A stretch of 64,000 nucleotides of DNA from positions 3,790-67,789 of the forward strand of contig JAZNXR010000002.1 in assembly GCA_045593985.1 (NCBI GenBank), in the 5' to 3' direction. The stretch comes from Eubacteriales bacterium (GTDB lineage Bacteria; Bacillota; Clostridia; Oscillospirales; CAG-272). The translations under genes and the position numbers were made by a program. Within the stretch, counting starts at the first letter, position 1. The number at the start of each line of letters is the position of its first letter. Below are positions 258 through 63,006 of this stretch, piece by piece. The notes under the pieces are model-generated. The model made no database searches and was not told the origin of the DNA. It worked only from the letters and a program-made list of their open reading frames with translations.

Positions 258-317
258 CGCCACATTGTCTTGCCTTCCCCTTGGGGAAGGGGGACCGCGA
301 TAGCGGTGGATGAGGTG
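258..317 (+). repeat. R2b repeat arm (CGCC..TCTTGCCTTCCCC-TTG-GGGGAAGG..hairpin..GGATGAGGTG)
   Basis: Same module order as both arms at 36676-36863. 8-bp stem CCTTCCCC/GGGGAAGG followed by the ACCGC-GATA-GCGGT hairpin. Confidence 0.8.
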
Positions 318-1227: not shown

Positions 1228-1283
1228 ATACTGTAACCGCCCGCCATAATGACGGATGAGATGTGGGCGGCAACGCCGCCGTT

Positions 1284-1309
1284 GTAGGGTGCGACGTCCC
1301 CGACGCACC
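1284..1309 (+). repeat. R1 GTAG-headed hairpin (REP-like)
   Basis: GTAG GGTGCG A CG TCCC CG A CGCACC: 6-bp stem, A.A mismatch, CG clamp, 4-nt loop. Confidence 0.8.
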
Positions 1310-1363
1310 GCTGCTCCCACGCCGGCTCTATTGCTGGGGGGTAAAACGCTTTTCTGCGTTTTC

Positions 1364-1751: not shown

Positions 1752-4700
1752 GTGATAAAAACGGCACGAAAAGCGCTGTCATTTTTCCTCAGCCTGTTGA
1801 TAATTATGTTGGCATTTTCTCTTTTCGGAAAAGAAGCATACGCCGCATCTCCGATTGGCGTCTACGGCGGAATCGATCCAACGGTAATGATGTCTGTAAT
1901 CGACAATATCGAGGACGATTTTAACCAAGGATTGTCGGAGTGGACGGTAAGCAAGGGTGCAGCGGAATGTATTACAGAGCTTGATCACGCCCCATATTCT
2001 CCATACGAGGGAACTCACAGCTTAAAGGCCGATATAGGTCAGTATCAGGCAGGCCAGAAAATCACGCTGAAAAAAAGTGTAACCAATCTGCGTGAAACCG
2101 CATCGTATCGCTATATAGCGGCGGCGATCTATGTCCCGAAGGAGGCAAAGAGCGCTACCGTTACAATGAAGCTCGTTGCTTCCCGAGGCTCAATAACAAG
2201 CACGAAAACGGTAGACGGCGGCAAATGGCAAACGGTTTTCTTTGAAACCAACGGTGTAAATAAGGGAAACGCAAGCAGAATCGAATTATCGATCACTGCC
2301 GAAGCCTCCTGCAACCTGTTCGTCCTTCTTGATGCGGTGGGCGCTTGCCGTGAGGAAGGCGATATACATAAAGCAAAATACCTGACCGACAGCTTCCTCC
2401 CAAGCGGATGTACCGTAGAGTACGACAGAAATCTTACGGTGTCCTTAAACGGCGAAGATCCGTATATCGAGGCAAACGCACTCACAAGCGCAAGCTTCGG
2501 TGACGGCATAGGACTGCGGGTAAATATGATAAATCATACCTCCTGCCGTTCTCTGACGCTTAAATATAAAACCGCAGGCTCGTATGAATACGATAAGGAA
2601 ATAACGCTGTCTCTCCCCGATTTCGATAGAGAAATAACGCTTTTGTATAAGATCCCGGAGGAAAAAATAGATGCGTATGCGCTGTATTTTGACGGAGCAT
2701 CAACGGGAGATATAGAGATAATATCGGTGTCCCCCTCGCCCTGCTTTGAAGAAACAGCGTCGATCGGAAAAATAACCGAGTGTCGAATTGCGCGGGATCT
2801 GAAAAACATTTGGATAAAGGGTAAAGTGAATCTCCCCGAGGAGCTTGACTCCGATAGCGTAATGCTCTATGCGTTAAATCCGAACGAGGATAATTCCAAT
2901 ATCGAAAACCTCCGTGAGCCGCTTTCAGAGGCGAGAATTCAAAACGGAGAATTCTCCTTCACGGTGTCACTCGACCGCAGCTACGAAGGAATATTCAAGA
3001 AATATATCGTGGTAGTTACGAACGAAGAAGGCTATAAGCTCGTATGCGAGCCGTGCTACGTAAACAACCCCGAAGCCCTCGCTACCGAGCGAACGCTTCA
3101 CCCCGAATCGAAAAAAGGCATAAGAGCGCTGCCCGAAAATTATATTTTTTGCGGAATTTCGCAAACTGCGCTCGATATAGAGCTGAATGAGCTTTTCGCT
3201 TCGTCGGGCAATGGAACGGTTTCCCATACGGTGGGAGCTGTAACACGTCACTATTCAAAGGAATATCTCGATTCCCTTGACGAAAAAATGAAGCAGTACA
3301 GCAGTGAGGGAATAAGCGTAAGATTCGTATTCAAGCTTAAATCGGGAAATACGGTTATAACTCACCCGAATTCGGTGGGTGAAAATGCCGCATTCAATAC
3401 CGAAACAAGCGAGGGAATAAACGCGTTGAGATCTGTAACCGACCTTTTGGTCAGAAGATACGGCTCATCAAAGGGCGTAACCGATAACCTGGTCGGAATC
3501 GTACTTGGAAATGCGGTAAACGATTCCTATAATAATTACAATCTCGGCAGAGAAACGCTGAGTGAATTTGCTCGCTCCTATTCGGCGGCGCTTCGAACGG
3601 TATATAATGCGTCGGTCAGCATAACGTCGGGCTTCGAAGTAAGCATGTCGCTTGGAGGTGAATGGAGCTTCGACCTGATAGCGACTCAAAAGGGAAGCTA
3701 TGATGCACGAAGTACCCTTGAAGCCGTGTCTGATTGCATCTCGGCGGGAGGAAATATAAACTGGAAGCTCGCCTACGATATAACCCCCGAAGAAGGCGAA
3801 TACGCATTCAGAAAAACCTCGCCCGATATCGGAGCAGGTACGGAGAAAATCACAGCGGATAATCTTGAAGCCTTAACGGAGTTTTTCTCGCTTCAGCCCT
3901 TCCTCTATAACGGTGCGTCAAGAAGCATCCTTCTTATCGGAAACGAGGAAAAAAGGGCAGCAAACGAGCAGGAAGAAAAGCTACTGACAACGGATTATAT
4001 CTACACGTTTCTTCGTATATCGGAAAGATCTATGAGAAACATATCGGGATATATTCCGAGTCATAGCGCCGATTATATGGGGGCGCTGAAATATATCGGC
4101 ACGGATAAGTTTTCTTCGAAAACAGAGTTTGCAGTTGATCTTATCGGAAAAGAACGCTATGAATTGCTGACAGGCTCAGGTATAGTCGTAGACAGAAAAT
4201 ACGCCGAAGCAACAGCGATAAACGAGCTGCCTCAAGGCATCAAGGGCGAGGCTGTGATCTTCAACCTCAGAAAGCAGAACGTGATAAGACCGTCGCTTAA
4301 CTGTCTGACGGCAGAAAGCGGAGTTTCCTACGGAGACCGATCCGACTGGGGAAGAATCCGTTTTACTTCAGCCGACGGCAAGGAGCCTCGGGGCTTTATC
4401 CTCGAGTCAAACAATCTTTTTGACCTGACGGAGGCGCCGTATATAAGCTTCGACCTTGTAATTTCCTCGCTTCCTAAGGGAATCGAGCGAATAAACGTTA
4501 CCGTTGTGCTATACTCTAATAAGAATATGGCAGTGACGGAAACGACAGTGGCAGTCGACAAGGAAAGCAGAATAATCTGCGATATGAGCAGCTTCAGTCA
4601 CCTCTCCTCCTGCGACAGAATCGGAATTTACATAACCGGTGAAAACGGCGAAAGCATCGGAGAGCCTATGATGCTGATATCGTCGGTTAAGGTTCATTCC

Positions 4701-14764: not shown

Positions 14765-14812
14765 TTGCGCTCGCAAATATTTGATCGTATGTAACCTATG
14801 CAATACGCAAAT

Positions 14813-14951
14813 GTAGGGACAGGCGTCCTCGACTGTCCGTGCGGGATAAATGAATCTTTATTCAACGCAAACGTTCAAATATTTCCGTATAAATTAACCG
14901 TTTTGATAAACCAAAACGTGGTAACGGACGGTCGAGGACGCCCGTCCCTAC
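14813..14951. repeat. R1 inverted doublet (REPIN-like): two GTAG-headed hairpins, 87-bp spacer
   Basis: 14813-14838 is GTAGGGACAGGCGTCCTCGACTGTCC. Reverse complement of 14926-14951 is GTAGGGACGGGCGTCCTCGACCGTCC. Confidence 0.85.
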
Positions 14952-22795: not shown

Positions 22796-23506
22796 TTATA
22801 ACGGCTTTGATGAAATTCTTGCGTAGGCGCGAGGGAACTGCGGAGGGGTGTCACGGCGTTTGTCAATGATGATAAGGCATCGCTCATCGCCCTCGCCGCC
22901 GACGAGAGTGAATTTCTTGACCTCGCGCGGCTTGCCGCCGAGAGTGCCGATGCCCGAAAGCGCTTCGGAAAGCTCCTCGTCTGCAAGTCGGCTCTTCATT
23001 GATAAGAACACGCCGCCGACCTTCAAAAACGGCAGACAAAGCTCCGAAAGAACGTTAAGGCGTGCGACCGCACGGGCGCTTACCGCAGTATAGCGCTGAC
23101 GGTAGCTTCTGTTATTCGCAAGTATTTCGGCACGTGCCGAGATCGTTTTAAGGTTAGTTATGCCGAGCTTTTCGGCGGTTGTGCGTATAAAATCGATCTT
23201 CTTGCCCGTGCTGTCAAGGGCGGTGACCGAAATATCGGGGCGAAGGATCGCAAAGGGGAAGGCGGGAAGCCCTGCGCCGCTTCCGACGTCGAGCAGATCT
23301 GCGCCTTGCGGAATGTCCTTTACGCAGACGGCGCAGTCGGCAATATGCTTGATTATCGCCTCGTCGGGATCCTTTATTGCCGTGAGATTCGTCACCTTAT
23401 TTGTTTCGAGAAGCTCGTACAGATAATCGGAGAGAAGCTTCGCTTGCGGATTGTTGACGGACACGCCGTTATCCTTTAATGCGGCCTTTATTTTTTCTGA
23501 ATACAT
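22796..23506 (-). CDS. rsmG: 16S rRNA (guanine527-N7)-methyltransferase
   Basis: LLDVGSGAGLPAFP SAM motif, GidB-like length, immediately downstream of mnmG. Confidence 0.95.
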   Translation of the reverse strand: MYSEKIKAALKDNGVSVNNPQAKLLSDYLYELLETNKVTNLTAIKDPDEAIIKHIADCAVCVKDIPQGADLLDVGSGAGLPAFPFAILRPDISVTALDSTGKKIDFIRTTAEKLGITNLKTISARAEILANNRSYRQRYTAVSARAVARLNVLSELCLPFLKVGGVFLSMKSRLADEELSEALSGIGTLGGKPREVKKFTLVGGEGDERCLIIIDKRRDTPPQFPRAYARISSKPL

Positions 23507-23552: not shown

Positions 23553-23720
23553 CCGTTCCTGCGAGATCCCGATGCCACAAGTGGCATCGCCCTACGGGTT
23601 CGACTGCATCCCGCCGTGTCATTCTGAGTGTAGCGAAGCGGAATCGAACGGCGAAGCCGCGCGAAGTGCAACGAAGCGGAATCTCGGCGGGATTACGCTC
23701 AGGATGACACGCAGGAACGG
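23553..23720 (+). repeat. R3 element (one 96-nt head unit, core, tail) bounded by 11-bp inverted flanks
   Basis: About 98% identical to the unit at 62832-62927. Flanks CCGTTCCTGCG/CGCAGGAACGG. Fills the mnmG-rsmG spacer. Confidence 0.85.
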
Positions 23721-23722
23721 TT

Positions 23723-25591
23723 TTACTCCTTCGCCTTAAGCCATATAAGAAGCACCGAGATATCTGCGGGGCTAACGCCGCTTATGCGTGAGGCCTGACC
23801 GATGTCGGAGGGCTTGATCTTATTAAGCTTCTGACGTGCTTCAAGGCGAAGTCCGTCGATCTTCGAATAGTCGATGTCGGGCGAGAGCTTCTTTTCGGAG
23901 AGCTTTTCAAGCTTCTTCGCCTCGTTTTTCTGGCGCTCGATATAGCCCTCGTATTTGATCATTACCTCCGCCTCGTAGCGAACACGGTAGGGCAGCTGCG
24001 GTCTGGTTATGTCAAATTCGGCAAGCATATCGTAGCTGACCTGCGGTCGACGGAGCAGATCGGATAGGCGCATTCCCGTTGTCATGGGAACGGTGCCCGC
24101 CTCGGTGAGAAGCGCATTCAGCTTGTCGGACGGGGGGATCGACGTTTTGCTCAAACGTCTGATCTCCTCCCTTATCATTTCCTGCTCGGACAGATACGCT
24201 TCGTAGCGCTTATCGCTGATAAGTCCTGCGTATCTGCCGTATTCGATAAGGCGTTCTTCGGCGTTATCCTGACGGAGAAGCAGGCGATATTCCGAGCGAG
24301 AGGTCATGATCCTGTACGGCTCATTCGTGCCCTTTGTGACGAGATCGTCAATGAGCGTTCCGATATATGAGCTGTCACGCGAGAGGATTATCTGCTCTCT
24401 GCCCTGGAGGGAGAGGGCGGCGTTGATGCCGGCGATAAGTCCTTGCGCCGCGGCTTCCTCGTAGCCCGAGGTGCCGTTGAACTGACCTGCGCCGTAGAGC
24501 CCGTTTATGCTCTTGAATTCGAGTGTCGGGTAAAGCTCTGTCGGATCGCAGCAGTCGTACTCAATAGCGTAGGCATTGCGCATCACCTGCGCATTTTCGA
24601 AGCCTATTATTGAATGAAGCATATCCTCCTGAACGTCCTCGGGAAGTGAGGACGAGAAGCCCTGAAGGTACATCTCGTCGGTATCTGCGCCCGTCGGCTC
24701 AAGGAAGAGCTGATGCCGTTCCTTATCGGAAAAACGCACGACCTTATCCTCGATGCTCGGGCAATAGCGTGGGCCGACACCCTCGATCACGCCTGAATAG
24801 AGGGGCGATCGGTGGAGGTTTGAACGTATTATTTCATGTGTTTTGCCATTTGTATAGGCGGTATGACAGGGAATTTGCGTGATGCCGTTCAGCGCTTCGG
24901 GATCGGTATCACGTGAATACGGCGTTATATATTCTTCACCGTCCTGGCGTTCGAGAATATCAAGATTGACCGAACGGCGGTGTATTCTTGCGGGAGTGCC
25001 TGTTTTGAAGCGGCGAAGGGAAATTCCAAGCTCACGGAGATTATCCGAGAGTCCCTTTGACGGAAGCATTCCGTCGGGGCCTGACGAAAAGGCATTTTCA
25101 CCGACAACTATACGGCTGTCAAGATAGGTTCCGCTTGCGATAATGACGGCGTCACATTCCCATTCTGTGCCGAGTGCGGTGACAACACCTGTGACCTTGC
25201 CGTCCGAAACGAGAATTTTTACGATCTCTGCTTGGACAAGGCGCAGATTCTCTGTATTTTCGATAACGCCTTTCATCACCGAACGGTATTTCAAGCGGTC
25301 TGCCTGTATTCTTTTTGAACGTACGGCAGGGCCTTTGCCTGTGTTGAGCGTTCGGCTTTGAAGGGTTACCTTATCGGCACTTCTGCCCATTTCACCGCCG
25401 AGAGCATCTATTTCAAAGACAAGGTGGCCTTTGCCTGTGCCGCCGATCGAGGGGTTGCAGGGCATATTGCCGATGGCATCGAGGTTCATCGTGAAAAGAA
25501 CCGTGTCAATGCCCATTCGTGCCGAAGCGAGCGCTGCTTCAATGCCCGCATGACCTGCGCCGATGACGGAGATTTTCGTGGTTTTTATCAT
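23723..25591 (-). CDS. mnmG: tRNA uridine 5-carboxymethylaminomethyl modification enzyme
   Basis: [15 protein letters not shown] motif and full GidA-like length. Start moved to MIKTTK; the track's 33-aa extension is a translation of the R2 repeat. Confidence 0.95.
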
Positions 25592-25614
25592 CGTATTTTC
25601 CGTAAAAGTGTTAT

Positions 25615-25724
25615 TTGCCTCGCCCTTTGGGAGAGGTGTCGGTCGAAGACCGACGGAGAGGGTAAAAATATCTTTGAGATCCCCTCTCACCGCCTAAAGG
25701 CGGAGCTCCCCCGGAGGGGGAGCC
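25615..25724 (+). repeat. R2 long element (five consecutive hairpins)
   Basis: TTGCCTCGCCC-TTTG-GGAGAGG, TCGGTC-GAA-GACCGA, GAGAGGG..CCCTCTC, CGCC-TAAA-GGCG, GCTCCCC-CGGA-GGGGAGC. Paralogous copy at 28319-28417. Confidence 0.85.
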
Positions 25725-25735
25725 TTATGGACATA

Positions 25736-26287
25736 TTATCTTTTCTCAACAAGGAAGAAAAACGGTGACGTCGGAGAATTGACTATACGCAGCTGCGAAA
25801 CACAGATCTTACGCCTGTCGAGGGTGGAAAAATACTCGGTGAGCATATTGCCCTCAAGCGTTCCTTCCTCGTGACCGGGGTAGACTGCGATAAGAAGTCC
25901 GCCGTCATCCTCAAGAAGGCGCAAGGCGGCTTCAACTGCTTGCATTGTTGACTCACGCAGGGTGGTTACCGTCTTATCCGAGCCGGGCAGGTAGCCGAGG
26001 TTGAACATTCCTGCGCAGATAGGCTCCTTTACGTATTTTTCTACGTTTGCGTGCGAATCGAGGATCAAGGTGTAATTCTTCGGGCAACCGCTTTCCGAAA
26101 GGAGTCTTTCGGAGCTTGCAAGAGCCGCCTCCTGTATATCGAAAGCGTAAACCTTGCCGTTTTCCCCAACCTTTTCAGATAGCCAGAGGGTATCGTGACC
26201 GTTGCCCATCGTAAAATCGACAACCGTGCCGCCTTCTCTTATATGGCCTTCTATAAACTGTTTTTCTACTGTTAATAAATCTATCAT
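25736..26287 (-). CDS. mnmM: class I SAM-dependent methyltransferase of the YtqB family (tRNA mnm5s2U34 methyltransferase MnmM-like)
   Basis: TMGNGHDT..GENGKVYAFDIQ matches the B. subtilis YtqB pattern from memory. The ATG at 26287 gives an ATGA overlap with pgsA. Confidence 0.7.
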   Translation of the reverse strand: MIDLLTVEKQFIEGHIREGGTVVDFTMGNGHDTLWLSEKVGENGKVYAFDIQEAALASSERLLSESGCPKNYTLILDSHANVEKYVKEPICAGMFNLGYLPGSDKTVTTLRESTMQAVEAALRLLEDDGGLLIAVYPGHEEGTLEGNMLTEYFSTLDRRKICVSQLRIVNSPTSPFFFLVEKR

Positions 26288-26871
26288 TTGCTCGGATTGA
26301 TATAAGGCCAATACGCCTTGAAGTAGTTAAGTCCCGAAACGAGGGTTGCGATCGCCGAAATTCCTACGAGGACATAGGTTGCGATATTATAGGTGTTGAT
26401 TCCCGTGATGCGGCAGAAGATCGGCTCAACGATCGCGACGATAACCGCTATCATCTGCGAAACGGTCTTGATCTTGCCCATGATATCTGCGGCGATTACG
26501 ACCTTCGACGATACGATCATACGAAGCGAGGTGACGGCAAGCTCACGGAAGAAGATTATGAAGAGGCACCAGAACATGAAGGTTACGAAAACCTTATCGT
26601 TGTGATGCTTTACGAGAAGTGCAAGGTAAGAGCCGATTATGAGAAGCTTGTCGGCAACGGGATCGAGAAACTTGCCGAAATCGGTAACAAGGTCATACTT
26701 GCGAGCGATTTTTCCGTCGAGCATATCGGTAAGGGATGTGAGCGAGAAAAGCAAAAGACCTATTATGCCGAACAGAATATCGAGGTCGGGGTTAAAGTTA
26801 AAAGCGATGAAGAACATACAGAAGGGGACAAGTATTATACGGAGAATTGTAAGCTTATTCGGTAGATTCAT
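26284..26871 (-). CDS. pgsA: CDP-diacylglycerol--glycerol-3-phosphate 3-phosphatidyltransferase
   Basis: NKLTILRI start and CDP-alcohol motif DMLDGKIAR..G.FLDPVADKL. Confidence 0.9.
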   Translation of the reverse strand: MNLPNKLTILRIILVPFCMFFIAFNFNPDLDILFGIIGLLLFSLTSLTDMLDGKIARKYDLVTDFGKFLDPVADKLLIIGSYLALLVKHHNDKVFVTFMFWCLFIIFFRELAVTSLRMIVSSKVVIAADIMGKIKTVSQMIAVIVAIVEPIFCRITGINTYNIATYVLVGISAIATLVSGLNYFKAYWPYINPSK

Positions 26872-26886: not shown

Positions 26887-28215
26887 TTAAATCATTTCGC
26901 CGTACAGATCGTAATCAATGGCGTCGGTAATTTTTATCGTTACAAACTCGCCCTCTTTGGGCTTCTTTTTTGAGGCAAAGTAAACTTTGCCGTCAATTTC
27001 GGGGGCATCTGCCTCGCTACGTCCGAAATAGGTTTCCGCAACGGGATCAAAGCCCTCGCAGAGGACGGTTACCGTCTTGCCTATTTTGCCACGGTTAAGC
27101 TCCTCGTGAATGTCGAGCTGGAGAGCCATTATTTCATCGTAGCGATCCTGCTTCGTCTGCTCGTCGATCTGATTTGGCAGATCGTAAGCGGGCGTATCCT
27201 CCTCACGTGAATAGGGGAATGCGCCGAAGCGATCGAACTTTGCTTCCTTGATGTACTCGCAAAGCTCGGTGAAGTCCTCCTCGGTCTCACCGGGGAAGCC
27301 GACGATGGCCGTTGTTCTTATCACGATTCCCGGAACACGCTCACGGAGACGCTTTACCGTGTCACGGACACAGGCACCGTCGCCGTGTCGATTCATTGCT
27401 TTCAGCATATTATCGGAAATGTGCTGTATCGGCAGGTCGATGTATTTTACTACTCGGCTGTTATTTGCAATTTCATTGACAAGCTCATCAGTTATTTTAT
27501 CGGGATAGCAGTAGAGCAGGCGGAACCAGGGAATCGAGGTTTCCTTCGTCAGCTCACGGATAAGGCGGGCAAGCGAATATTCGCCGTAGATGTCAAGGCC
27601 GTATCTGGACGTATCCTGCGCAACTATCACAAGCTCCTTTACGCCCAGCTCCTCAAGCGATTTTGCTTCATCAACGATATCCTCGATCTTGCGGCTGCGG
27701 AATGAGCCTCGGATATTCGGAATTGCGCAGTAGGAGCAGCGGTTGTCACAGCCCTCGGCTACCTTTATGTAAGCGGTATAATCAGGCGTTGTAACAACTC
27801 TTTCGCCGCCGAGGACAAGAGATTCGTTCGGCTCGCATGAGAGGTATTTTTCTCCCCTTGTAACGGCTTCAACCGCCTTTACTATATTGTGGATGCTGCC
27901 CGTTCCGACAACTGCGTCTACCTCGGGAAGCTCCTCAAATATTTGCTCACGGTAGCGCTCGGCAAGACATCCGCAGCAGATTATTCCTTTTAGCTTTCTG
28001 TTTTTCTTCAGCCACGCGACATCAAGAATGTTGTCGATAGCCTCCTGCTTTGCGCTCTCTATGAAGCCGCAGGTGTTTACGATTATTATATCTGCTTCAA
28101 TATCCTCGGGGGTAATGTCGTAGCCTGCAGTGACAAGCTCGTGAAGCATTACCTCGGTGTCTATCTGGTTTTTCGGACAGCCGAGCGAGATGAAGCCGAT
28201 TACCGGTTTTTTCAT
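26887..28215 (-). CDS. rimO: ribosomal protein S12 methylthiotransferase
   Basis: MTTase N-domain SLGCPKN, radical SAM CSYCAIP, TRAM C-terminus. Start moved to MKKPVIG; the track's 70-aa extension is repeat translation. Confidence 0.95.
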   Translation of the reverse strand: MKKPVIGFISLGCPKNQIDTEVMLHELVTAGYDITPEDIEADIIIVNTCGFIESAKQEAIDNILDVAWLKKNRKLKGIICCGCLAERYREQIFEELPEVDAVVGTGSIHNIVKAVEAVTRGEKYLSCEPNESLVLGGERVVTTPDYTAYIKVAEGCDNRCSYCAIPNIRGSFRSRKIEDIVDEAKSLEELGVKELVIVAQDTSRYGLDIYGEYSLARLIRELTKETSIPWFRLLYCYPDKITDELVNEIANNSRVVKYIDLPIQHISDNMLKAMNRHGDGACVRDTVKRLRERVPGIVIRTTAIVGFPGETEEDFTELCEYIKEAKFDRFGAFPYSREEDTPAYDLPNQIDEQTKQDRYDEIMALQLDIHEELNRGKIGKTVTVLCEGFDPVAETYFGRSEADAPEIDGKVYFASKKKPKEGEFVTIKITDAIDYDLYGEMI

Positions 28216-28318: not shown

Positions 28319-28417
28319 TTGCCTCGCCCTACGGGAGAGGTGTCAACCGAAGGTTGACGGAGAGGGGAAATCGCCCTCTCACCCGACTTCGTCGGGAGCT
28401 CCCCCCAAGGGGGAGCC
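28319..28417 (+). repeat. R2 long element, second copy
   Basis: Same five-hairpin order as 25615-25724, with covarying stems (TCAACC-GAA-GGTTGA; CCGAC-TTC-GTCGG). Confidence 0.85.
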
Positions 28418-28423
28418 AACAAC

Positions 28424-28449
28424 AAAAAGCACCCTTTCGGGTGCTTTTT
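28424..28449 (-). terminator. rho-independent terminator of the lipoprotein gene
   Basis: AAAAAGCACCC-TTTC-GGGTGCTTTTT, immediately after the stop at 28453. Confidence 0.85.
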
Positions 28450-28452
28450 GTA

Positions 28453-36675: not shown

Positions 36676-36863
36676 CGCCGTCTTGCCTTCCCCTGAGGGG
36701 AAGGTGGCCGAGCAAGGCGAAGCCGCGCCGAGGTCGGATGAGGTGGATCAAACTTTAAAAATACGATTATGGCAAATTAGTTGCTTCACCTTCGGAACAC
36801 CTCATCCGTCTGCTCCTGCGTCGCAGACACCTTCCCCTGAGGGGAAGGCAAGAAAACGTGGCG
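36676..36863. repeat. R2b inverted doublet (two roughly 68-nt arms, 52-bp spacer)
   Basis: Left arm is CGCCGTCTTGCCTTCCCCTGAGGGGAAGGTG..GGATGAGGTG. Reverse complement of the right arm is CGCCACGTTTTCTTGCCTTCCCCTCAGGGGAAGGTG..GGATGAGGTG. Confidence 0.85.
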
Positions 36864-40910: not shown

Positions 40911-40951
40911 TGGAAAATTTTAGATATTTAAGGTATTTTTGTGACTTAGTT

Positions 40952-41089
40952 GTAGGGGGCGACGTCCTCGACGCCCCGTTGCAACGTTTGAAATCTTAAG
41001 ACCGTTTCTCACTGTTGCATAAATGTTTATAATTATACAAAAAAGATACATTGCTTTTAATGCGGGGCGTCGAGGACGTCGCCCCCTAC
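40952..41089. repeat. R1 inverted doublet (REPIN-like), 27-nt perfect arms, 86-bp spacer
   Basis: GTAGGGGGCGACGTCCTCGACGCCCCG at 40952, and its exact reverse complement ending at 41089. Confidence 0.9.
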
Positions 41090-42410: not shown

Positions 42411-42497
42411 AAGGGGCAAACCGTTTGAATTTTGCCATGCAAAATTCTGCACACGTGAAACCCCTTTCGTTTTAAGTAAGCTTTGTGACGTTTAATT

Positions 42498-42523
42498 GTA
42501 GGGACAGGCGTCCTCGACTGTCC
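42498..42523 (+). repeat. R1 GTAG-headed hairpin, solo copy
   Basis: Identical to 14813-14838. Followed by GGTGCTCCCACGC, as the copy at 1284 is followed by GCTGCTCCCACGC. Confidence 0.85.
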
Positions 42524-42577
42524 GGTGCTCCCACGCTCTGTACATTCTCTATTAAAAAAGATAGATCGAACGTCGTC

Positions 42578-42622
42578 TTGCCTCGCCCTTCGGGAGAGGT
42601 GCCCCGAAGGGGCGGAGAGGGT
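42578..42622 (+). repeat. R2 half element (first two hairpins only)
   Basis: TTGCCTCGCCC-TTCG-GGAGAGGTG CCCC-GAA-GGGG CGGAGAGGGT. Confidence 0.8.
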
Positions 42623-42624
42623 GT

Positions 42625-42658
42625 AAAAAAGGACGCCTTTCGGCGTCCTTTTCTTTTG
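42625..42658 (-). terminator. rho-independent terminator of the SDR/pdxK operon
   Basis: AAGGACGCC-TTTC-GGCGTCCTT with flanking A and T runs. Confidence 0.85.
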
Positions 42659-44481: not shown

Positions 44482-44557
44482 GGGAGCATAGCTCAGCTGG
44501 GAGAGCATCTGCCTTACAAGCAGAGGGTCATAGGTTCGAGCCCTATTGTTCCCACCA
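44482..44557 (+). tRNA. tRNA-Val (anticodon TAC), CCA encoded
   Basis: Cloverleaf folded by hand: acceptor GGGAGCA/TGTTCCC, anticodon loop CTTACAA, T-loop TTCGAGC. Confidence 0.9.
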
Positions 44558-44561
44558 TCAC

Positions 44562-44638
44562 GGCCCGGTAGTTCAGTTGGTTAGAACGCTAGCCTGTCAC
44601 GCTAGAGGTCAGGGGTTCGAGTCCCCTTCGGGTCGCCA
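44562..44638 (+). tRNA. tRNA-Asp (anticodon GTC), CCA encoded
   Basis: Acceptor GGCCCGG/TCGGGTC, anticodon loop CTGTCAC, T-loop TTCGAGT. Confidence 0.9.
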
Positions 44639-44683
44639 CTTTTATTTTCGGCATTCTGCCAAGCTTATTGAGTTGCCGAATAT

Positions 44684-44759
44684 GCCTCGATAGCTCAGTT
44701 GGTAGAGCAGTAGACTGAAAATCTACGTGTCGTTGGTTCAATTCCGACTCGAGGCACCA
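44684..44759 (+). tRNA. tRNA-Phe (anticodon GAA), CCA encoded
   Basis: Acceptor GCCTCGA/TCGAGGC, anticodon loop CTGAAAA, T-loop TTCAATT. Confidence 0.9.
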
Positions 44760-44803
44760 AAAAAGAATAAGTGTGTATCGCAGCCACGCGGTACATACGG
44801 TAT

Positions 44804-44879
44804 GCGGATTTAGCTCATTTGGTAGAGCGCCACCTTGCCAAGGTGGAGGTGGCGGGTTCGAGCCCCGTAATCCGCTCCA
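44804..44879 (+). tRNA. tRNA-Gly (anticodon GCC), CCA encoded
   Basis: Acceptor GCGGATT/AATCCGC, anticodon loop TTGCCAA, T-loop TTCGAGC. Confidence 0.9.
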
Positions 44880-44881
44880 AC

Positions 44882-44922
44882 AAAAAAGCCTAATTTGTCT
44901 ACTTGACAAATTAGGCTTTTTT
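44882..44922 (+). terminator. rho-independent terminator of the tRNA operon
   Basis: A6, GCCTAATTTGTC-TACTT-GACAAATTAGGC, T6. Confidence 0.9.
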
Positions 44923-45075
44923 GAATGATGTTTGCCTTCGACAAATGATGTCGTTTCACTAATGATGCCGCTGACGCTAATGATGTCGGCTTCGCCTAAT
45001 GTTTTGCGGCAAACATCGCATCATTGCGAGTGAAACGAGCAACATCATTATGCGGAGCATAACATCATATCGCCG
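44923..45075. repeat. R4 array: AATGATG-headed units (17-20 nt period) followed by CATCAT(T)-tailed units
   Basis: AATGATG at 44924, 44944, 44961, 44979 (and AATGTTT at 44998). CATCATT at 45019 and 45043, CATCAT at 45063. Confidence 0.7.
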
Positions 45076-45168
45076 TAGGCGATGCCTATTTAATCAAGGC
45101 AAAACGAAAGTAGAATACTTTTACTTACTTTTACCTTGGTTCTGCTCCGTTTGGTTACTCTTTCGCAG

Positions 45169-45198
45169 AAAAAAGCAAGTCGAAAGACTTGCTTTTTT
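45169..45198. terminator. orphan bidirectional terminator-like hairpin
   Basis: A6, GCAAGTC-GAAA-GACTTGC, T6. No ORF on either side. Confidence 0.7.
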
Positions 45199-45286
45199 CA
45201 ATGATATCCGCCCTTCGGTCGGAATAAATCATCTTCGATGATGAAATCACCTTCGGTGATGAGATCCGTCGGGGCGACGGATGAGG
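45199..45286 (+). repeat. string of small hairpins related to R4/R2b (ends in GGATGAGG)
   Basis: ATCAC-CTTCG-GTGAT and ATCCGTC-GGGGC-GACGGAT, with GATGA motifs between. Confidence 0.5.
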
Positions 45287-45365
45287 TTTTCATTCATTTG
45301 TTAAACATCTTTTTGTTTTTACATATAATGTTATTACCCCAATAAAAATAATTTCTCAAAATCCA

Positions 45366-45394
45366 TTGACAAAACGGTCGCTCCGTGATATAAT
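45366..45394 (+). promoter_or_regulatory. sigma-A promoter of tRNA-Cys
   Basis: TTGACA, 17-nt spacer, TATAAT preceded by CGTGA. Confidence 0.8.
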
Positions 45395-45411
45395 ACCCAT
45401 GTTCCGAAAAC

Positions 45412-45486
45412 GGCGACATAGCCAAGTGGTAAGGCCACGGTCTGCAAAACCGTTATTCTCCAGTTCAAATCTGGATGTCGCCTCCA
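45412..45486 (+). tRNA. tRNA-Cys (anticodon GCA), CCA encoded
   Basis: Acceptor GGCGACA/TGTCGCC, 3-bp D stem, anticodon loop CTGCAAA, T-loop TTCAAAT. Confidence 0.9.
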
Positions 45487-62712: not shown

Positions 62713-62735
62713 TGATTTAGCAAATGTCTTTTTGC

Positions 62736-63006
62736 GAGATCCCGATGCCACAAGCGGCATCGCCCTACGGGTTCGACTGCGTCCCGCCGTGTCATTCTGA
62801 GTGAAGCGAAGCGGAATCGAACGGCGAAGCCGAGATCCCGATGCCACAAGTGGCATCGCCCTGCGGGTTCGACTGCGTCCCGCCGTGTCATTCTGAGTGT
62901 AGCGAAGCGGAATCGAACGGCGAAGCCGCGCGAAGTGCAACGAAGCGGAATCTCGGCGGGACTTCGCTCAGGATGACAAGGCGGGACTCCGCTCAGGATG
63001 ACCGCG
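62736..63006 (+). repeat. R3 element with a tandemly duplicated 96-nt head unit and a duplicated tail
   Basis: Units at 62736-62831 and 62832-62927 (period 96, a few mismatches). Core at 62928-62953. Two tails GGCGGGAC..CGCTCAGGATGAC at 62954-62977 and 62980-63002. Confidence 0.9.

Follow-up and report, generated by a model that had tools for sequence, protein, structure and literature searches.

A five-hairpin element between mnmM and mnmG of an Oscillospirales bacterium is an inverted dimer and probably one copy of a dispersed REP-like repeat family

The intergenic element termed R2, which lies between mnmM and mnmG in a 64,000-nucleotide stretch of Oscillospirales DNA (contig JAZNXR010000002.1 of assembly GCA_045593985.1; the whole stretch analysed is called the window), probably represents a single member of a dispersed family of mosaic repeats, non-coding and GC-rich, which is of the REP/BIME/REPIN type, and it is not a five-hairpin element that evolved as a regulator for the rimO-pgsA-mnmM-mnmG-rsmG operon. 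Its 110 nt are constructed from two homologous two-hairpin units, which face each other tail to tail as an inverted dimer. Strong covariation of the hairpins is seen in over 140 copies; it is real, yet it is not evidence for a locus-specific regulatory RNA. The dispersed hairpin-repeat family of gut Clostridia to which these copies belong has apparently been undescribed so far.

The basic module of the family spans about 45 nt and consists of a pyrimidine/purine hairpin with a pyrimidine-rich triloop, followed by a free-stem hairpin whose loop is mostly C-GNA-G, and then by the purine-rich tail GGAGAGGG. The covariance model used for its detection, designated R1, was trained solely on twelve left halves, each consisting of hairpins 1 and 2 and the tail, and it was limited to one unit with equal-length hairpins because MAFFT misaligns the variable hairpins of full elements. 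Scanned over the 64-kb window with filters off, R1 retrieved eight units, comprising three left halves, three members of a sister subfamily and, on the opposite strand, two right halves (Table 1). The recovery of right halves on the opposite strand by a model of left halves indicates that hairpins 4 and 5 are the inverted homolog of hairpins 1 and 2, and the central stem is formed because the two purine tails are reverse complements of each other. The spacer enclosed by that stem varies between 0 and 28 nt in other dimer copies.

Table 1. Repeat units of the window and the gene string around copy 1 (window coordinates).
Feature	Position	Strand	Details
Sister-subfamily solo unit	271-316	+	R1 14.6 bits, E 0.014
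rsmG	22796-23506	-	Pfam GidB
mnmG	23723-25591	-	Pfam GIDA
Copy 1 (full)	25616-25725		between mnmM and mnmG
Copy 1 unit A	25616-25662	+	R1 68.1 bits, E 1e-18; predicted fold
Copy 1 hairpin 1	25618-25625/25629-25636	+	CCTCGCCC/GGGAGAGG, conserved G.A mismatch
Copy 1 hairpin 2	25638-25644/25648-25654	+	GAA loop
Copy 1 unit A purine tail	25655-25662	+	GGAGAGGG
Copy 1 inter-unit stem	25656-25662/25682-25688		GAGAGGG/CCCTCTC
Copy 1 AT-rich spacer	25663-25681		loop of inter-unit stem
Copy 1 unit B	25682-25725	-	inverted homolog of unit A; R1 24.8 bits, E 1e-5
Copy 1 hairpin 4	25690-25694/25699-25703		
Copy 1 hairpin 5	25705-25712/25716-25723		
mnmM-like methylase	25736-26284	-	Pfam PF06962
pgsA	26284-26871	-	Pfam CDP-OH_P_transf
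rimO	26887-28215	-	Pfam RimO
Sigma-70-type consensus promoter of rimO-pgsA-mnmM-mnmG(-rsmG)	28283-28255	-	TTGACA-17-TATAAT, 12/12; outside repeat
Copy 2 (full)	28320-28418		
Copy 2 unit A	28320-28366	+	R1 64.8 bits; hairpin 2 TCAACC-GAA-GGTTGA
Copy 2 unit B	28374-28418	-	R1 36.3 bits, E 4e-9; hairpin 4 CCCGAC-TTC-GTCGGG; abuts T-tract of terminator 28422-28451
Sister-subfamily tail-to-tail dimer	36684-36850		hairpin 1 CCTTCCCC/GGGGAAGG, tail GGATGAGGTG, 55-nt spacer
Sister-subfamily dimer units	36684-36744, 36800-36850	+, -	R1 18.6 and 27.2 bits
Half copy (copy 3, solo unit A)	42579-42621	+	R1 53.8 bits

A preceding sequence-only reading of the window had described two full copies with the same module order and one half copy, and these were all located as it had claimed. 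The string GCCTCGCCC-N3-GGGAGAGGTG occurs three times in the window (25617, 28321 and 42580), always on the plus strand and against 0.00 occurrences expected from dinucleotide shuffles, while GAGCTCCCCC-N3-GGGGGAGCC is present at, and closes, both full copies. The variants quoted for hairpin 2 (TCGGTC-GAA-GACCGA, TCAACC-GAA-GGTTGA and CCCC-GAA-GGGG) and for hairpin 4 (CGCC-TAAA-GGCG and CCGAC-TTC-GTCGG) were correct, and so were the gene names of the surrounding string, which agree with Pfam. What had been taken for conserved single-strand joints are, instead, arms of stems: GGGAGAGG makes up the 3' side of the hairpin-1 stem, hairpin 3 is formed by pairing between CGGAGAGGG and CCCTCTCAC, and GAGCTCCCC contributes one arm to hairpin 5. 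The suggested alternative pairing does exist, and it arises from the 7-mer GGAGAGG, which flanks hairpin 2 on either side as a direct repeat. A purine-motif triplex, in which the tail is folded back on hairpin 1, was also considered and dropped, since the mirror symmetry it calls for is found only in the GGAGAGG subfamily.

The family extends far beyond the window. When 185,579 species genomes were scanned for the motif of hairpin 1, at least 119 loci emerged; among the matches listed, most derive from metagenome-assembled genomes of gut or rumen Clostridia (Oscillospiraceae, Ruminococcaceae, Acutalibacteraceae and Faecalibacterium), a second group in Rhizobiales (Aminobacter, Mesorhizobium and Notoacmeibacter) carries the same two-hairpin unit, and the remainder are chance matches inside genes of high-GC genomes. 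A stricter pattern combining hairpin 1 with the purine tail gave 80 units among the matches listed, and 21 full dimers with the same module order were present among them, two of which are those of the window, two come from a sister strain (L121/L122) and the rest from at least 12 other genomes. R1 detected 160 units in 713 kb of fetched loci from other genomes, chiefly gut Oscillospirales but also Rhizobiales and phage contigs; many of these units had been missed by the pattern search. Adjacent R1 matches in this sample were tallied manually as about 17 tail-to-tail and about 18 head-to-head dimers, together with clusters. As is typical of REPs, the family thus presents many extragenic, GC-rich imperfect palindromes, whose units are paired in inverted orientation and are also found solo, head to head or nested in other repeats, and the copies are flanked by housekeeping genes.

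The mosaic organisation known from BIMEs is likewise evident. Near-identical local duplicates and nesting were encountered at loci L054, L020 and L040: R2 is nested in a sister dimer at the latter two, a 270-nt composite that contains R2 is duplicated at L054, 1.5 kb apart, and a GTAG hairpin accompanies the units at window position 42496 and at L092. The two nested cases (L020, 2500-2900, and L040, 1300-2200, both from Ruminococcus sp. RUG14066) place the R2 dimer in the spacer of the sister-family dimer, and the whole composite is repeated in RUG14066 at a distance of about 0.4-0.5 kb. The GTAG-head hairpins constitute a separate repeat family (window 1282-1322, 14812-14839, 40950-40990 and 42496-42536; TTGTAGGG-ACAGGCGTCCTCGACTGT-CCG), which looks like a canonical GTAG-type REP and adjoins R2 units in the window, L092, L006 and L036. 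Another repeat, a 157-nt mosaic with the modules GTCATCCTGAGCG... and CGATGCCACAAGTGGCATCG, fills the mnmG-rsmG junction (23562-23718) and occurs twice in tandem at 62735-62987; it is heavily rearranged between the window and strain L121, unlike R2.

Viral genomes also harbor the motif, which was detected in 19 IMG/VR viral contigs, several of them with 3-5 units. The phage or prophage contigs L137-L153, whose GC content is about 60%, have 3-5 units each, which mostly point the same way in a given contig, and in L139 the units are situated at gene 3' ends, antisense to the genes. ORF calls were unusable in 60%-GC phage contigs. Conservation of phage-borne units among related contigs was mixed, with no consistent pattern. 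BLAST of copy 1 returned one weak, unannotated match from GenBank phages and none from PLSDB plasmids. Rfam searches of the window and four loci, at gathering and E-value thresholds, gave no family at any R2 unit, even at E <=5, and the searchable literature, including that on Faecalibacterium repeats and RIME, held no description of this repeat family. A sub-threshold match to the Gut-1 RNA motif (RF01706, 42.3 bits against a gathering score of 50) was seen at window 45199-45270 (+) in the tRNA cluster 44482-45483, and Gut-1 lies above threshold in L068 at 1510-1581.

Under the repeat-family reading, the copies would spread by insertion into AT-rich intergenic spots, often at the junctions of rearrangements or directly behind stop codons or terminator T-tracts, and each unit would be recognised as a folded single-stranded-DNA hairpin, in the way that REPs are recognised by HUH/Y1 (RAYT-type) enzymes. 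At the mnmM-mnmG junction, the element would be co-transcribed passively, and its stable hairpins might secondarily serve as an exonuclease barrier or as a spacer in the operon mRNA. A scan for the Y1 motif in 1.48 Mb of fetched flanks found no transposase, which is a weak test, as RAYT genes are single-copy per genome; the ORFs between paired copies in L054 and L045 likewise look, from their translations, like ordinary genes, with no obvious transposase. In the window, hairpin 1 follows TTTG or CTTG and hairpin 2 follows GGTG-T, neither of which is GTAG, while many other family members read GAGGTGG-CGGC, i.e., with GTGG directly 5' of hairpin 2. Neither a target-site duplication nor a clean empty site was seen among the copies and loci compared. 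A MITE was rejected, since no flanking direct repeat was found in 19 full copies, although the ends of the element are inverted-repeat-like (GCCTCGCCC versus the reverse complement GGCTCCCCC, 7/9). That the element might simply be the end of an insertion sequence, a caveat of the sequence-only reading, is contradicted by the tight position of copy 1 between mnmM and mnmG, by the absence of shared sequence beyond the element, and by the lack of an adjacent transposase gene or a longer repeated body.

The distribution in related strains is patchy. Exact-protein look-ups of the MnmM and MnmG of the window gave none on record, and relatives were fetched through MnmM homologs. The sister strains L120-L123, of about 94% nucleotide identity, keep copy 1, while the 579-nt mnmM-mnmG junction of L124 (GCA_965352285.1, 82% identity) lacks R2 and is filled by further repeats in addition to two sister-family units. 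The ends of this L124 junction (2602-3182) bear AT-rich inverted repeats, AAAGTTTGG...CCAAACTTT and CAAAACCTTTTT...AAAAAGGTTTTG, which may be the ends of another small element. Adjacency of mnmM and mnmG was found in only 3 of the 76 relatives with sequence downstream of mnmM, implying that rearrangement has occurred recently at this junction. In place of copy 2, L120 possesses a Big_2/HTH cassette of 1145 bp, which is flanked by the same terminator and the same rimO promoter. Moreover, R1 found 2 units in 334 kb of relatives, chosen via mnmM regardless of the repeat, versus 8 in the 64-kb window, which is indicative of a lineage-specific expansion.

The best-surviving alternative, still unlikely, holds that R2 acts first and foremost as RNA, within the rimO-pgsA-mnmM-mnmG-rsmG transcript, where it either protects the upstream mRNA from 3' exonucleases or provides a processing site uncoupling mnmG; such mRNA-protecting and processing roles have been described for REP/BIME elements of E. 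coli (e.g., PMC2817692, PMC3733652). All five genes lie on the minus strand, so that the operon RNA is the reverse complement of the element as it had been written in the sequence-only reading. Copy 1 starts 10 nt past the mnmM stop (25736) and ends 24 nt ahead of the mnmG ATG (25591), and the coding strand of the 143-nt junction shows no promoter-like and no terminator-like site, in agreement with the earlier statement that no promoter intervenes. The only strong promoter of the gene string is the 12/12 site upstream of rimO, which is kept in L120, L124 and L125. Since the junction contains neither promoter nor terminator, co-transcription is plausible, and copy 1 is probably co-transcribed within the operon. 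Folding of the 143-nt spacer on the coding strand yielded five hairpins of -62.9 kcal/mol (z = -5.9), and the plus strand gave five as well (-66.8 kcal/mol, z = -5.6), with none of 200 shuffles as stable in either case.

One argument for a local role is sequence conservation, which also tells against passive insertion. Between the window and L121, 70 of 491 four-fold sites in pgsA, mnmM and mnmG (14%) and about 10% of the rimO leader differ, whereas copy 1 shows two differences in 110 positions, located in a loop and the spacer, respectively (binomial P = 8e-6), which is unlike passive decay. This suggests either host-level constraint or self-correction of the palindromes, and a role of copy 1 as an operon mRNA element is accordingly possible. 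The same genes provide a side observation on annotation: the longest mnmG ORF (655 aa) begins at a GTG inside the element, the extra stretch covering 25592-25690 of the window (1793-1891 in L121), while the real start is the ATG at 25591 (622 aa). Public gene calls on sister contigs use the GTG, and the repeat thereby creates a start-codon artefact in which MnmG is called 33 residues too long.

Against an RNA element as the primary identity, the coding-strand RNA holds unit A in its less stable orientation, the orientation of the family relative to genes is random, and R2 is missing from the L124 junction, the junction itself being young. Relative to the flanking genes, 16 elements are sense, 12 antisense, 7 convergent and 3 divergent; the elements had been masked before ORF calling, because spurious ORFs run through the repeats. 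This mixed orientation (16/12), the absence at the L124 junction and the lack of an Rfam match do not fit a cis-regulatory RNA, and with no T-run after any of the five hairpins on either strand, the element is not an intrinsic terminator. The other copies of the window lie after terminators and before promoters: copy 2 has the rimO promoter on one side and, on the other, the terminator T-tract of the upstream DUF6528 gene (28422-28451), and the half copy directly abuts the terminator of an SDR gene (42627-42652), 40 nt beyond a GTAG-type hairpin repeat. Being located just after intrinsic terminators, two of the three copies are thus outside transcription units.

Each unit seems to fold on the purine-rich strand that is its own, as several asymmetries indicate. 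The hairpin-2 loops are GNA (GAA, GTA, GCA or GGA), usually closed by C-G, in 38 of 62 distinct copies, and their stems contain 12 G.T pairs versus 2 A.C. Hairpin-4 loops are GNA in none of 19 copies when read on the plus strand and in 8 of 19 when read in the own orientation of unit B. For 76 of 78 units under RNA parameters and 75 of 78 under DNA parameters, the own purine-rich strand is more stable than its complement. Hairpin 1 retains its G.A mismatch in every retrieved copy, those of Rhizobiales included, which is partly by construction, as the search pattern contained the mismatch. The claim that one five-hairpin element had been selected as a single RNA consequently fails: its halves are homologous and inverted, their GNA loops and tolerated G.A or G.T mismatches lie on opposite strands, and halves optimised on opposite strands are a misfit with one selected RNA. 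Mini-hairpins of the GCGNAGC or C-GNA-G type are far more stable as DNA than as RNA, and the C-GNA-G motif is known from single-strand initiation sites (PMC13037366). Taken with the own-strand folding, these loops point to recognition as single-stranded DNA.

A bolder and rather doubtful proposal starts from the same features. The two-hairpin unit might represent a new cross-phylum class of ssDNA-folding elements, shared by Oscillospirales, their phages and Rhizobiales, which dispenses with the GTAG guide of RAYT-dependent REPs and is defined by a fixed G.A-mismatch hairpin, a free-stem C-GNA-G mini-hairpin and a purine tail, and which either owes its mobility to an enzyme or is retained because it serves the host as a strand-specific signal in DNA, for instance for priming or fork processing. 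If true, the latter option would explain why the rate of evolution of an individual copy is about 8 times below that of synonymous sites.

It is less probable still that the units are host DNA signals and not selfish at all, namely ssDNA initiation or priming sites, or sites for nucleoid, gyrase or recombination proteins, of which a dimer would offer one oriented unit per strand. The CCGAAGG and GCGNAGC mini-hairpins match primase-dependent ssDNA initiation sites (the G4 origin and ssiA of RSF1010; PMC13037366), the dimers do put one own-orientation unit on each strand, copy 1 is conserved, units are present in phage genomes, and a search with the hairpin-1 sequence brought up entire non-coding units, the same tail included, in Clostridia as well as in Rhizobiales. 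A housekeeping signal would, however, not be expected to be as extremely patchy as the densities in the window and its relatives; the orientation of the units shows no significant bias relative to local GC skew (30 versus 19, p = 0.15), a result that also counts against the repeat-family reading, and no associated protein was found.

The compensatory stem changes noticed between the copies of the window were borne out on a larger sample. All 62 distinct hairpin-2 sequences form hairpins, with 381 Watson-Crick positions and stems of 3-8 bp whose sequence is variable. In a model-based alignment of 141 distinct units, fitted to R1, 94.1% of the cells are standard pairs and two-sided changes occur in 13 of 15 pairs (240 cells), although the independent events are fewer than the cells, because many copies share subfamily variants. 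The covariation score reached 0.245, compared with 0.063 after shuffling (0/500) and at most 0.056 with slid partners. Changes at random, which the sequence-only reading had named as an outcome that would undo its claim, were not what emerged. From the alignment of full copies, information is gained on hairpin 5 alone, in which one covarying pair is C-G in 10 copies and T-A in 6, while hairpins 1 and 3 are invariant in that set, partly because the search regular expression fixed them.

The compensatory stems might in principle be a mutational and genealogical artefact, in which decaying junk is self-corrected by template switching and copied as subfamilies, an account that we regard as quite improbable. 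That quasi-palindromes are corrected by intrastrand template switching is established; the same variants of hairpins 2 and 4 reappear across genomes in different combinations (TCAACC with CCCGAC in copy 2, TCAACC with CCGCC in L045, TCGGTC with CCGCC in copy 1), and several G.T cases share the one subfamily pattern GCGC...GTGAC. Nevertheless, the 62 distinct hairpin-2 sequences vary in both length and composition and all pair, the bias for GNA loops and the strand asymmetry are not predicted by such an origin, and copy 1 has also conserved its joints and loops, which are not palindromic. The hairpin-1 G.A mismatch, which self-correction should erase, persists in non-coding matches of Clostridia and Rhizobiales, with the reservation that the search pattern required it and copies without it were unsampled.

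The repeat family matters beyond this locus. Gut Oscillospirales, including Ruminococcaceae, Faecalibacterium and their relatives, are abundant and important bacteria whose non-coding DNA is almost uncharted, and the family inflates their intergenic regions, marks rearrangement junctions, corrupts gene calls, and places copies inside operons and phage genomes. To our knowledge, REP-type repeats of known mechanism come almost entirely from Proteobacteria. A family of Firmicutes and their phages, with a different unit design and a DNA-specific loop motif, would open a new way to study the spread and the function of such repeats.

Several known systems resemble the family in part. BOX elements of Streptococcus pneumoniae (boxA-boxB-boxC) are also modular Firmicute intergenic repeats with complementary end modules, a stable multi-hairpin fold and frequent co-transcription; they are not known to be related in sequence to the units described here, and their modules are longer and AT-richer, with a tandemly variable boxB. 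The mini-hairpin DNA d(GCGNAGC) shares the C-GNA-G loop with most hairpins 2, e.g., GGCGAAGCC and the CCGAAGG of copies 2 and 3, but it is a structural motif and not a genetic element, and its presence only suggests folding at the DNA level (PMC13037366). The GTAG- and CGTC-tagged REP superfamilies surveyed by Di Nocera et al. in 2013, a survey listing no Firmicutes (PMC3733652), have the same head-to-head, tail-to-tail and solo organisation, with several families per genome that are found together with other repeats. The present hairpin 2, read on the reverse strand, follows CCGTC, as in CGTC REPs, whereas the latter possess 8-9 bp stems starting with A-T, 4-5 nt loops and a CCA tail, which the present units do not fit (PMC3733652).

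The REPIN-RAYT systems of Pseudomonas and E. coli (PMC3116915, PMC3337134, PMC5581495) are likewise characterised by inverted doublets with a short spacer, by lineage-specific expansions in copy number, and by hairpins thought to be recognised in single-stranded DNA. The two REPs of a REPIN pair into one long hairpin, whereas here the units self-fold and only the 7-nt tails pair; head-to-head dimers are, in addition, as common here as tail-to-tail ones, and no RAYT gene is linked. Relative to enterobacterial REP/BIME elements, the unit consists of two adjacent hairpins and a purine tail (about 45 nt) instead of one 35-nt palindrome, the copies of the window are without a GTAG head, and the hosts are Firmicutes (Oscillospirales) and phages. 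Both are short, GC-rich, imperfect and extragenic palindromes, often situated behind stop codons or between co-directional genes, which form inverted dimers and clusters mixed with other motifs and are co-transcribed when they lie within operons. The comparison with BIME and REP elements, which the sequence-only reading had already drawn, named the right class.
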